Shown: one piece after another, positions 50,698 through 54,374 of the stretch
Position numbering within the stretch: the first letter of the stretch is position 1
How the letters are laid out: each line of letters opens with the position of its first letter
DNA from: Candidatus Poribacteria bacterium
GTDB lineage: Bacteria; Poribacteria; WGA-4E; WGA-3G
NCBI GenBank assembly: GCA_965198235.1
Contig: OZ240248.1
Location: 3,488,001 to 3,552,000 of the forward strand
DNA: 64,000 bases
Reading direction: 5' to 3'
The notes under the pieces: generated by a model
The model's input: only the letters and a program-made list of their open reading frames with translations
Told to the model about the DNA's origin: nothing
Database searches by the model: none
Position numbers and translations under genes: made by a program

Positions 50698-52281
50698 TTA
50701 AAACAGATAACCCATCTGAATCGCGAGTCGGTGCGCTTGGTTTGTTGCCCCTTTACGATGTTCAGTATTTTGCGTGTAGTGCCATACGTATAAGAACGAG
50801 GCATTCCATCCATTCAATGGACGGTAGGAGAATTGCCCACCGATTTCTGTCGTCCGTGCAACAACACCCGTCGGAAACGGGAGCGTCCTGAAGTCTTCTC
50901 CGTAAAACCGATCTGCGATTGTGCCTTCACCCTGTCGGGTGAGCACGCCGCGAATCTCCGCTTCGGTGGAGACAGTCAATTGATAGGTGGCTGAAAATCG
51001 AACTGTATCCGAATCGGTGCTGATTGGATGTCCGATTGCGTATCCGAAGTGTGTGAACTGATTATCAGGCACCAGATGCGTGTAAGCCCATCGGTTGACG
51101 CGTGCGTATTCGCTGTGAATTCCGAGATGACGACCAAGGTGTTGTGGATACCATGTCGCTCCTAAGAGCCACGCCACTGCATGGGGATCGTTCGCACCAG
51201 GAACGTATTGGATATCGTCGATGACCCATTCACCATACAGCCGGACCCCATCAATAGGACGGATAGCGGCATCAAAGGCGAACATGACGTTATCGTCGGC
51301 TTTGGCGTTGTATTGTAGCGCGTAATAGAAAGTGATCGGGTTTGCGTATTTCCATTCAAGCGTCTGGGCATCGCCACCGTAAAGTACCCATTCCGCGACA
51401 CCGATTTCCACGCGATCGTTGAATTGGTAGTCGAGTCGGTGTCCGCTGATATAACGTTTCGCGAGATAGCGTTTTTCACCGTCATCGTACCAAGTTGAAT
51501 CGAGTTGCGCTGTCCAAGCCGTCGCCTTGAGTCGTTTTCCGAGTCTACTACTGAGTCGGACCTGGTCAAACGGCGGCGAGTTATCAGAGATACCAACCGT
51601 TTTGTATGGACTCGCGCCCCAGAAGAGCCAATCTCTACCGACAAGCAGATCAAGGTGTGCGCTATTGACTTGCAAGTAACCTCTCTTGAAGTCGCCAGTG
51701 TAGTCCCTGCGCCAGCGTTCAAGGCGTTGTCCGGCTGTCTTCCCATCCAGCGGTGGGCTCTCAAAGTTATGTGCCTCAAATTCAGAATACAGAGTGAGGC
51801 GCGGGACGTTTCGCTGTTCGAGTTTCCCAAGTGTATAGTGAAGTGCCCATTCAAACGCCGGAGCCACTTTTTCTTCTGTCGTCCGGAGTTGTGGCAGGAA
51901 TCGCATCCTCCGTCCACCGTGGTGCCTGAGTTCTTTCGCGAATTCCCGTTTCAATTTTTCTAAGAGTTTCCTATCTATCGCTAATGGGACAACAACGCCT
52001 GTGCGAATGCGCGATTCAGCCTGCCGTATCGTTTCTGCTGCATCTGCTCTTGAAAGCGGTGCTGTGTGTCGATGGAATCCGCCTGTGATACCATCGGTTT
52101 CCAACTTCGCGAGTGCTTCAGTAACCCAACCATCGAAATTCAAGGGGACATCGGGCGCACCAAACGCCGTGCTCAGAATGAACATAGATGCCAGGAAGAT
52201 GTATAAGATATTCAATCGTGGAGAAGTGGGTGTGTCAGCATCAACGATCCTTTCTATGTTTGAATAGACGGGAAAATTCAC
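50698..52281 (-). CDS. Capsule assembly Wzi family outer-membrane protein
   Basis: GRDWLFWG...ISDNSPPFD, GHRLD, YGEWVIDD and GHPI motifs; terminal Phe. Confidence 0.8.
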   Translation of the reverse strand: MNFPVYSNIERIVDADTPTSPRLNILYIFLASMFILSTAFGAPDVPLNFDGWVTEALAKLETDGITGGFHRHTAPLSRADAAETIRQAESRIRTGVVVPLAIDRKLLEKLKREFAKELRHHGGRRMRFLPQLRTTEEKVAPAFEWALHYTLGKLEQRNVPRLTLYSEFEAHNFESPPLDGKTAGQRLERWRRDYTGDFKRGYLQVNSAHLDLLVGRDWLFWGASPYKTVGISDNSPPFDQVRLSSRLGKRLKATAWTAQLDSTWYDDGEKRYLAKRYISGHRLDYQFNDRVEIGVAEWVLYGGDAQTLEWKYANPITFYYALQYNAKADDNVMFAFDAAIRPIDGVRLYGEWVIDDIQYVPGANDPHAVAWLLGATWYPQHLGRHLGIHSEYARVNRWAYTHLVPDNQFTHFGYAIGHPISTDSDTVRFSATYQLTVSTEAEIRGVLTRQGEGTIADRFYGEDFRTLPFPTGVVARTTEIGGQFSYRPLNGWNASFLYVWHYTQNTEHRKGATNQAHRLAIQMGYLF

Positions 52282-54374
52282 TATGACTCCGCCTCCAATT
52301 CCTTAACATAAGCATCAATGCGTCTGAACTGCCACGCCCATTGTACGTTGTAGAGGAACTGCCGTAGGTCGAAGCGATTGTCGTCTGGCGAATAAGATTC
52401 AGCATGATAGGAAGGCGTTAGCGTTGTCATTTTGTGTCGATTGATGGAGTAGTACCGAAAGAACCGTTTGACCTTCTCGGCAACCTCATGGGGTGGCAGA
52501 TGGTCCCACTCTTGTACCAATTTTTCAAACATACTGACAGGACCGCACTGCTCCATTTTTCGGAGTTGCCCGAAACGACTCAATTCGGCGTAAGTCATCC
52601 CCATATCGTCTTCATCGGTTTGCGTATAGGTTTCGGTTATCGGTTCCAGCTCTGCTGTCGGTGGCGCGTCAACAATTTCCGAGAGAGCCGTATAACCGAG
52701 ATTGTGGTTAGCCCAATTCAGGAATCGACGTAAGTCGTGTTTGCTAATCCCACCGATCGGGTTGATGTCCCCGCTACTACAATCATATTTTGTGAGGTAG
52801 CCCCGCAACGCCTCGTCAACGTTTCCTGTGCCCAATACGAGGAGAGTGCCTTCCCGGTTCCGCACCCACGGAATCATTTGAGCAAACAGATAACTCAGCA
52901 CCATTCGCAACCTTGCTTGTATGTTCTGAAGTGCCTGATTCTCTCTGTAAGTGCCACCTTCAACCTTAAATCGGGGTGTCTTCTGCGTAATGCGGGTAAA
53001 GAGCGTCTGCAGCGCACTGACAAGTCCGTCCATATTGATGTTGAGATGGTCGGCACCGATCTGCTCGGCGAGCTGTTTCGCGCGTTTTTGGGTGTCGCGA
53101 GAACTATTCTCTGTGCCGATGTAGCACGTATACAGTAGACGATTAGCAAGTACACACGGATCCGTGAAAATGTCGGGAGTTTCACCGTCGTCCAGCCACC
53201 GCTCTACATCGCGAAGAACCGAAGCCTCTTTGTCGCGTATCGCTTTCGCTACCAATTGACACATTGAACCGACAAGCGTTGCAACGGCACCGCTGTCAGC
53301 ACCACCAGAAAGCGGGATGAAATACCCCGCCGCCCCAGATCGGCGTAGATAATCCCAGAGCCAGCAAGCCGGACCCAAAGCGATCTCTTCCTCCGGTTCA
53401 TGCGTGGACAGTTCGATTTTTCTGCTCACGTTCAGGACGCTATTCCCGTGTGCAGGTTCAAAATCAAAGTCAATATCTATCTGGGGCAACGGCTCCATTT
53501 TACTTGCCTGTACAGCCCGACTCGCCTTCGCGCCGCGATACGCACGCACGTCGTGAAGGTTCACTGTCGCGGTGACGACCTCTACATCTTTAAGCGAGAA
53601 TTGGGAACCTTGCGCTAAAATCTCGCCGTTTTGGGCGATCAACGCACAGCCGTCGAAATAGAGTCTACCGCCATCACATCCCTGCTGGTTGGCATAGAGA
53701 TAGACACCACCATTTTTCGCACTTGCGTTCCGAATGAGCGCGATGCGTGTATCCAATTTCCGTAACTCGTGATGAGAACCTGACCCGTTCGCTATGATTT
53801 CAACGCCGGCATTGCCGAAGTGTATATGTGGACTCATCGGCACAAAGAGTTCCTCACAGGTCTCCGATGCCAAGAGTGTATCGGCGGTGGCAATCGCCGC
53901 GATGCCGATAGGCACCGTCCGTTGTCCGGTCAGTTCGGCAATCTCGCGAGGAAGTGTATACGGTTCGGTGCTCCAACCCCGTTCCCATGCTGTAAACCAG
54001 CGATGTTCCCGATAATTACCGTCGCTCGCCATGACCATCTTGGGACGAATTAACAGCAGCTTGCCGTCTAATACGAAAACCCGACAGTTATACCGAACGT
54101 TTTGATGCATAACAGGCATCCCAATGTCACACAGAATGCCATCTGTCCGTCCGCCTTTGAGGATACATGCCAGCGATTCCCAACTGTGTAGAAGCGTGTC
54201 CAATTCCAGAAAATGGTCTTCGCAGGAATACCCCGTAATCTCCAATTCCGGTCCCAACCGATACCGAGCCCCGCGTTCTTTCGCAATCTCTATGGATTCA
54301 ATGATGCGCGCAGCGTTCCCTTCAAAATCGAGACTCCATTGATTCAGGTTGCACGTTGCGAGGACTGCTTTCAT
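52281..54374 (-). CDS. nadE: Glutamine-dependent NAD+ synthetase, eukaryote-type (NADSYN1/Qns1-like)
   Basis: Nitrilase domain GPELE / K / ETCEELF; PP-loop LSGGADS; C-terminal [31 protein letters not shown]. Confidence 0.95.
   Translation of the reverse strand: [697 protein letters not shown]

Follow-up and report, generated by a model that had tools for sequence, protein, structure and literature searches.

The subject of this study is a nadE gene in a window of 64,000 nucleotides (the whole stretch of DNA that was analysed, positions 3,488,001 to 3,552,000 of contig OZ240248.1) derived from a Candidatus Poribacteria genome. This gene, located at 52281..54374 on the reverse strand, almost certainly encodes a glutamine-dependent nicotinamide adenine dinucleotide (NAD+) synthetase of the eukaryotic type, as represented by human NADSYN1 and yeast Qns1, judging from profile, structure-database and residue comparisons of the deduced protein. 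Within one poribacterial order, the gene was shown to be of long standing and to have been passed on vertically. Its history is, with high probability, one of ancient inter-domain horizontal transfer in which the ordinary bacterial NadE was displaced, since the gene is of the eukaryotic type, represents the only NadE of its cell, is old in one order, is absent from the deeper Poribacteria that were searched and is common to a narrow Chloroflexota clade. With regard to direction, transfer from a eukaryote to a bacterium is favoured with moderate confidence.

A literature search retrieved no published report on a eukaryote-type NAD synthetase, or on its displacement pattern, in Poribacteria. The enzyme family and its chemistry are known, and the function of the homologues had been annotated before, as GenBank records name them 'NAD(+) synthase' or 'glutamine-dependent NAD(+) synthetase'; what the search did not retrieve in print is their affinity to eukaryotes and the pattern of displacement.

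Enzyme class and predicted active site

The nadE open reading frame (ORF) starts with an ATG codon at 54374, which lines up with the N-termini of its homologues, and was shown to encode 697 amino acids (aa) without internal stops or introns. All four peptide stretches on which the first-pass annotation, made by a model from the sequence alone, had based its comparison with eukaryotic enzymes were found in this translation. Pfam analysis identified an N-terminal glutaminase domain of the CN_hydrolase (nitrilase-like) family at residues 5-280 (53535..54362, reverse strand; PF00795, E 1.8e-37) and a C-terminal NAD synthetase domain of the PP-loop ATP pyrophosphatase type at residues 338-603 (52566..53363, reverse strand; PF02540, E 2.7e-28), with the TIGR00552 nadE domain scoring 98 bits against a cut-off of 63.65. 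The window protein therefore displays the fused nitrilase-like glutaminase and NAD synthetase layout of the eukaryotic type, and possesses a glutaminase domain, unlike the single-domain ammonia-dependent NadE.

Among all PDB chains, the top match was 6ofb, the human glutamine-dependent NAD+ synthetase (E 8.3e-274, 913 bits), which aligned in a single stretch (residues 2-694 of the query against 5-696 of the chain) and thus over essentially the full length of the 697-aa product. The second match, 3ilv, a 634-aa bacterial glutamine-dependent NAD+ synthetase presumably from Cytophaga hutchinsonii, was far weaker (224 bits, in two stretches), and the Mycobacterium tuberculosis NadE (3dla) reached 84 bits across the glutaminase domain alone. 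The claim of the first-pass annotation that the protein is close to the eukaryotic enzyme and unlike the usual bacterial NadE was borne out by this contrast of 913 bits to 6ofb versus 84 bits to 3dla. Consistent with it, the NCBIfam equivalog models for fused bacterial NadE were missed (PRK02628, 148.2 bits versus a cut-off of 473; PRK13981, 130.6 versus 479), as were those for single-domain ammonia-dependent NadE (PRK13980, 78.6 bits versus 255; PRK00768, 62.3 versus 250).

BLASTP comparison showed 59.9% identity to the protein of the red alga Galdieria, 59.4% to that of the fungus Entrophospora, 57% to those of Silene and Salix, 56.4% to that of Paraphoma and 55.6-57.7% to the animal sequences (57.7% being that of an animal-like representative), compared with 31-33% to the nearest other bacterial NadE group. 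The ESM Atlas clusters nearest to the window protein were composed of 97-100% Eukaryota. Yeast Qns1 and the plant and algal glutamine-dependent NAD+ synthetases belong to the same family, although the set from which the Galdieria, Silene and Salix figures derive was without a yeast sequence. Qns1 and the eukaryote-type enzymes have been designated 'branch II' of the fused NAD synthetases (NADS) in the available part of De Ingeniis et al. 2012 (PMC3376133).

Catalytic positions were read from the 6ofb alignment and checked by script, with roles assigned after the available part of Chuenchor et al. 2020 (PMC6946656). Glutaminase residues Glu43, Lys112, Cys173 and Glu174 of the window protein align with human Glu45, Lys114, Cys175 and Glu176, so that the Cys-Glu-Lys triad and the adjacent second Glu are all present; the codon of the predicted nucleophile, Cys173, is located at 53856..53858 on the reverse strand. 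The PP-loop motif SGGADS (residues 356-361; 53292..53309, reverse strand) aligns with SGGVDS of 6ofb. Furthermore, Tyr121 and His201 correspond to human Tyr123 and His203, the two constriction residues that the same source, as far as available, describes as conserved in eukaryotes, prokaryotes having Phe and Pro at these positions (Phe130 and Pro204 in M. tuberculosis NadE). Every sequence-level feature of the NADSYN1/Qns1 type that was checked was found in the window protein.

The mechanism, activity, tunnel behaviour and oligomeric state are predicted by homology to the solved human enzyme, and the window enzyme probably works as human NADSYN1 does. The nitrilase-like N-terminal domain would hydrolyse glutamine by means of Cys173, Glu43 and Lys112, aided by Glu174, after which a tunnel inside the protein is expected to convey the ammonia to the PP-loop domain at the C-terminus. 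There, the synthetase domain is predicted to adenylate nicotinic acid adenine dinucleotide (NaAD) with ATP and to amidate it to NAD+.

In comparison with human NADSYN1 (6ofb), the two-domain organization, the alignment along the whole length, the PP-loop, the C-E-E-K set of the glutaminase and both constriction residues (Tyr and His) are shared (residue roles again as in the available part of PMC6946656), whereas the window gene differs in being bacterial-chromosomal, intron-free and part of a tight same-strand string of genes. The ordinary bacterial fused NadE proteins (3dla/3sdb, PRK02628, PRK13981) have the same reaction and domain order as the window protein and are distantly homologous to it, but carry Phe and Pro at the constriction instead of Tyr and His (PMC6946656, available part).

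Four full-length relatives of 646-672 aa (P0243, P0320, P0337 and P0343) were observed at 32-35% identity to the window protein. For these, the precomputed Pfam list reports NAD_synthase and no CN_hydrolase, and their glutaminase domain may be degenerate.

Distribution in Poribacteria and Chloroflexota

The window genome, assigned to Candidatus Poribacteria, encompasses 5.17 Mb in two contigs and is 96.3% complete. The window protein gave a single match in its own genome, and the sole other PF02540 match (31 bits) is best explained as LarE; the window gene is therefore taken to be the only NadE of the cell. This second PP-loop match is located at G000:C1:2401174-2401368, where TIGR00268 was detected with E 8e-19 on a matched piece of 65 aa. 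LarE is a sulfur transferase, and this match hints at a nickel-pincer cofactor pathway of the lactate-racemase type.

Close homologues (66-96% identity) were identified in Candidatus Poribacteria genomes. The gene was present in 41 of 41 relatives, and the carriers include genomes assembled into one or two contigs. To place these in a wider frame, a phylum-wide even sample of 151 poribacterial genomes was searched, a match being defined as E<=1e-20, and 139 of the 151 genomes matched according to the total count. In this sample, families f1-f4 represent one poribacterial order, f5-f7 other orders of the class and f8-f9 other classes. The eukaryote-type nadE was present in all 99 genomes of f1, all ten of f2, 25 of the 26 of f3 and all four of f4, i.e. 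in 138 of the 139 genomes by which the order was represented, a good number of them being single-contig assemblies. Conversely, at the same threshold it was not found in f5-f7 (0/8) or in f8-f9 (0/3).

Ten of the 11 non-carriers (G141 was left out) were searched with PF02540, and all ten matched with 186-281 bits, compared with only 100 bits for the window gene. Nine of these matches are situated in open frames of 267-585 aa, while contig ends truncate the tenth (G143); they represent ordinary single-domain NadE or fused forms of approximately 550 aa. As f1-f4 carry the eukaryote-type gene and the deeper Poribacteria searched retain an ordinary NadE, the ancestor of the order appears to have swapped the latter for the former.

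Seven carrier metagenome-assembled genomes (MAGs), namely PCPOR1, PCPOR4, PNGco_C_bin3, PNGco_C_binSS2, SB0668_bin_37, SB0670_bin_33 and SB0675_bin_22, bear names that are listed under the sponge-associated Entoporibacteria in the available part of PMC7883664.

Some nadE copies showed individual peculiarities. In G082, G083, G093, G099, G125, G126, L055 and L059, the match consisted of two parts, both situated in a single open frame of 729-779 aa, with the break near residues 305-318, i.e. in the inter-domain linker, indicative of an insertion at this position. The copy of G086 contains one in-frame TAG, and that of L059 a stretch of X, which stands for bases that are masked or unknown.

Outside Poribacteria, homologues with 65-69% identity to the window protein were found in Chloroflexota, in records titled Ardenticatenaceae, Candidatus Leptovillus and Promineifilaceae, and the proteins of the two phyla were shown to share 66-73% identity. 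Within one Chloroflexota order, 25 of 121 genomes encode the eukaryote-type nadE. In a phylum-wide Chloroflexota sample of 301 genomes, the centre genome alone matched, with no match among the other 300. The eukaryote-type gene was the only strong NadE match in two of the three Chloroflexota genomes checked, and the record titles of the Chloroflexota carriers identify them as organisms of activated sludge. The presence of the same bacterial version in a Chloroflexota subclade implies at least one further transfer, between bacteria. Passage from Poribacteria to Chloroflexota was considered because the Chloroflexota sequences are nested inside Poribacteria in two trees, but it was set aside, as grouping Poribacteria alone together was not rejected in the approximately unbiased (AU) test (LG+G4, log-likelihood (lnL) cost 4.86, p-AU 0.416). 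The remaining bacterial phyla were covered by one contig scan with 8-residue patterns of the window protein, which relatives at ~60% identity may escape.

Phylogeny and origin of the gene

To position the bacterial proteins relative to eukaryotes, maximum-likelihood (ML) trees were inferred as quick searches with support values from the Shimodaira-Hasegawa-like approximate likelihood ratio test (SH-aLRT) and no bootstraps. The eukaryotes, collected by profile searches, comprise Galdieria, Salix, Silene, three diatoms, Chrysoparadoxa, Obelidium, Entrophospora and Paraphoma, as well as Callipepla, Diabrotica, the ciliates Blepharisma and Moneuplotes, and several EukProt/MMETSP entries; P0121 was labelled animal-like on account of its 1082 bits to 6ofb. 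For the outgroup, the closest of the remaining bacterial groups that were found was used, with proteins of 655-668 aa at 31-33% identity; two of its rows are Pseudomonadota, and the group itself falls under the NCBIfam equivalog cut-offs; 3ilv was not included in the trees.

In a 57-row IQ-TREE phylogeny (LG+C20+F+G4 with posterior mean site frequencies, PMSF), Poribacteria and Chloroflexota formed one clade (support 98), which shared a polytomy with the plants, the red algae and the stramenopiles, the Opisthokonta being apart (96). In a 41-row tree obtained under the same model, a clade with support 95 was composed of the bacteria (81), Opisthokonta (99) and a EukProt group (99), with plants, Galdieria, stramenopiles and ciliates outside it; the animals were located within the Opisthokonta clade and the bacteria outside the latter. 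FastTree analyses placed the bacteria beside Opisthokonta (111 rows, 95) or beside the EukProt group (152 rows, 90). The outgroup split received a support of 100 in the IQ-TREE trees, and each root side of the outgroup branch measured 2.45-4.33 changes per column (2.45 in the 57-row tree), as compared with backbone branches of 0.02-0.1 changes per column, which are very short. The bacterial clade is thus situated inside or beside the eukaryotic radiation and far from other bacterial NadE. The first-pass annotation had named placement within a broad, ordinary bacterial clade as one of two findings that would overturn its proposal; the protein instead groups with eukaryotes and is separated from bacterial NadE by a very long branch.

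Certain protist transcriptome sequences resembled the bacterial proteins nearly as closely as the Poribacteria and Chloroflexota proteins resemble one another. The EukProt and MMETSP entries P0389, P0392, P0398, P0422 and P0424 showed 60-67% identity to the bacterial clade. For P0422, the identity was 62.7% with the window protein and 66.6% with one from Chloroflexota; its ESM Atlas look-up returned generic eukaryotic clusters. Two sets of sequences were examined as further bacterial candidates and discarded. A group of 630-660 aa (53-55% identity), considered as an extra bacterial lineage, falls among the diatoms and simply lacks the C-terminus. The groups P0271/P0272 and P0274-P0276, suspected to be bacterial on account of the length of their contigs, cluster with the ciliates Blepharisma and Moneuplotes and are probably protists. 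A separate observation concerns P0088 from Lupinus angustifolius (1201 aa), which matches the query twice (residues 6-641 and 687-1163) and looks like a tandem duplicate fused in one gene model.

Topology tests were performed on constrained groupings. Holding the 13 named eukaryotes together against 22 bacterial and outgroup rows cost 0.02 lnL units under C20 (p-AU 0.482). For all 24 eukaryote rows, three of which are counted as eukaryotic by placement, the cost was 4.41 under C20 (p-AU 0.090) and 10.8 under LG+G4 (p-AU 0.116). Placing the bacteria together with three animal rows cost 79.8 under LG+G4 and was rejected (p-AU 0.002).

The favoured scenario is that the gene entered the ancestor of one poribacterial order, Entoporibacteria included, by horizontal transfer and was not ancestral to Poribacteria; the imported gene displaced the ordinary bacterial NadE and has been inherited vertically since, its most likely ultimate source being a non-animal eukaryote. 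The eukaryote-to-bacterium direction is preferred because eukaryotes are the only broad holders of the gene that were seen, because each of the two bacterial groups with the gene is narrow and has relatives that lack it, and because there are neither bacterial side branches on the long stem nor a measurable branch uniting eukaryotes against bacteria. Several findings weigh against it. Eukaryote monophyly was not rejected in any of the three tests given above, and the root is unreliable because the outgroup branch is very long. The eukaryotic neighbour of the bacterial clade shifts with method and sampling, being represented by Diaphoretickes groups, Opisthokonta or the EukProt group, and in unrooted form the bacteria branch off close to the middle of the eukaryotes, the position at which a sister of all eukaryotes would attach as well. 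In addition, the trees are quick searches supported by SH-aLRT only, and the other bacterial phyla were covered by a single pattern scan.

The main alternative is a bacterial origin, in which the genes of the Poribacteria and the Chloroflexota subclade would descend from the bacterial lineage from which the eukaryote ancestor obtained its two-domain NAD synthetase, and the bacterial clade would be sister to all eukaryotes. We regard this as unlikely, though deserving of serious attention. Besides the unrejected eukaryote monophyly, it accommodates the short branches of the bacterial sequences near the centre of the eukaryotic radiation and their approximately equal closeness (55-60% identity) to red algae, fungi, plants and animals, and it agrees with the view that the eukaryotic branch arose from the bacterial fused NADS branch, as put forward in the available part of De Ingeniis et al. 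2012 (PMC3376133), in the text of which Chloroflexi are not mentioned. However, the carriers form two narrow groups, the deeper relatives of which possess an ordinary NadE or yield no match, which argues that the gene is an import in both. A bacterial origin would also need an unsampled bacterial source in which the gene has persisted from a time preceding the last eukaryotic common ancestor. The long stem leading to other bacterial NadE was seen to bear no bacterial sequence, and the unconstrained ML trees root the outgroup elsewhere among eukaryotes. The first-pass annotation had offered these same two possibilities, namely transfer from a eukaryote or a clade of bacteria that is sister to the eukaryotic enzyme; both retain support, and the p-AU values do not separate them. 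If the origin were bacterial, the proteins described here would represent the closest known prokaryotic relatives of NADSYN1/Qns1, marking the source of the eukaryotic enzyme and providing a slowly evolving proxy for that of the last eukaryotic common ancestor.

Acquisition of the gene from the sponge host or another animal is very improbable. It would fit the presence of sponge-associated Entoporibacteria among the carriers (PMC7883664, available part) and the identification of human NADSYN1 as best PDB match, though the latter is the only eukaryotic structure that was matched. The grouping of the bacteria with animals was nevertheless rejected in the AU test described above, in a set that contains no sponge sequence, the animals belong to an Opisthokonta clade that excludes the bacteria, and identity to animal proteins is no higher than that to a red alga or a fungus (59-60%). 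This rejection of an animal donor, together with the record titles of the Chloroflexota carriers, which point to activated-sludge organisms and not to symbionts, weakens the suggestion of the first-pass annotation that transfer is plausible for a host-associated lineage. The chance that the result is an artefact, i.e. eukaryotic contamination, a chimera formed in assembly or an ordinary NadE with a superficial eukaryotic likeness, is negligible: the unusual similarity is all that prompts the idea, for which no supporting evidence was found, whereas the same gene and neighbours occur in dozens of independent assemblies, single-contig genomes included. Moreover, the gene is intron-free and tightly packed among bacterial genes with a GC content like theirs, it is the only NadE of a 96%-complete genome, and the bacterial equivalog models reach only 131-148 bits against cut-offs of 473-479. 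With respect to the chimeric assembly that had been raised earlier as a possible explanation, the near-universal presence in the order, the conserved neighbours and the ordinary GC content indicate that there is none.

The setting is unusual in that an essential housekeeping enzyme of the eukaryotic type acts as the sole NAD synthetase across an order of sponge symbionts and also occurs in an activated-sludge Chloroflexota clade, relatives of the carriers having retained the bacterial form. To our knowledge, it is rare for a core metabolic enzyme to pass from a eukaryote to a bacterium with displacement and long vertical inheritance. Among the Entoporibacteria themselves, the available part of PMC7883664 describes an archaeal pantoate kinase and phosphopantothenate synthetase, the free-living Pelagiporibacteria keeping the bacterial version. 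The two cases are alike in that a cofactor enzyme from another domain of life replaces the bacterial one in the same organisms, and differ in that the previous one involves the coenzyme A (CoA) pathway and an archaeal donor. The present case would thus be the second of domain-foreign cofactor biosynthesis in Entoporibacteria, and, because the archaeal CoA-pathway replacements are already known from that source, foreign cofactor enzymes look like a recurring trait of the lineage. NadE has furthermore been discussed as an antibacterial target on the basis that bacterial and human enzymes differ (PMC6946656, available part), a difference to which carriers of the eukaryote-type gene would be exceptions. 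As a soluble bacterial orthologue with ~57% identity to human NADSYN1, the protein could serve as a convenient model.

Gene neighbourhood and composition

In the window, nadE is part of a same-strand series of genes (all on the reverse strand) in the order 879-aa PD40/DUF2141 protein, 487-aa protein, 342-aa PD40 protein, nadE, Wzi-like protein and SLT transglycosylase. The string is headed by the gene for the 879-aa protein (56904..59543), which showed weak DUF2141 and PD40 matches in the Pfam scan, followed by that for the conserved 487-aa protein (55428..56891), to which no Pfam family could be assigned in the same scan. The gene immediately upstream of nadE encodes a PD40/TolB-like beta-propeller protein of 342 aa (54386..55414; PF07676), with a gap of 11 nucleotides between its stop codon and the nadE ATG at 54374. 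Downstream, a Wzi-like outer-membrane protein is encoded (50698..52281, longest frame 527 aa; PF14052, E 1.7e-14). The overlap between nadE and this wzi-like gene, as claimed in the first-pass annotation, amounts to one shared base, the G at 52281, where the nadE stop TAG meets the most upstream GTG of the wzi-like frame; this GTG is merely the most upstream possible start, and the overlap therefore holds only if it is used.

Neighbouring genes were compared across 62 poribacterial loci (L007-L068) and five Chloroflexota loci. Among the former, the Wzi-like gene adjoins nadE in 61, the 487-aa gene is present in 60 (72-95% identity), the 879-aa gene in 57 and the SLT gene in 54, compared with 13 for the 342-aa PD40 gene. 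Apart from this PD40 gene, whose insertion between the 487-aa gene and nadE varies among loci, the order of the genes is fixed. None of these five poribacterial neighbour genes was found at the five Chloroflexota loci. Within the order, the block consisting of the 879-aa gene, the 487-aa gene, nadE and the wzi-like gene is kept in both f2 loci examined (2/2), and is absent from both f3 loci (2/2) and both f4 loci (2/2).

The nadE gene exhibits a GC content of 51.8% and a GC content at third codon positions (GC3) of 55.4%, values similar to those of its neighbours (48.8-52.4% and 49-56%, respectively), and thus displays no compositional sign of recent transfer. With regard to the neighbouring proteins, the 879-aa protein diverges fast relative to nadE, being reduced to 42-48% identity in more distant lineages. 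The 487-aa protein outdoes its neighbours in conservation, retaining 69-70% identity in f2, where the 879-aa and Wzi-like proteins fall to 42-50%.

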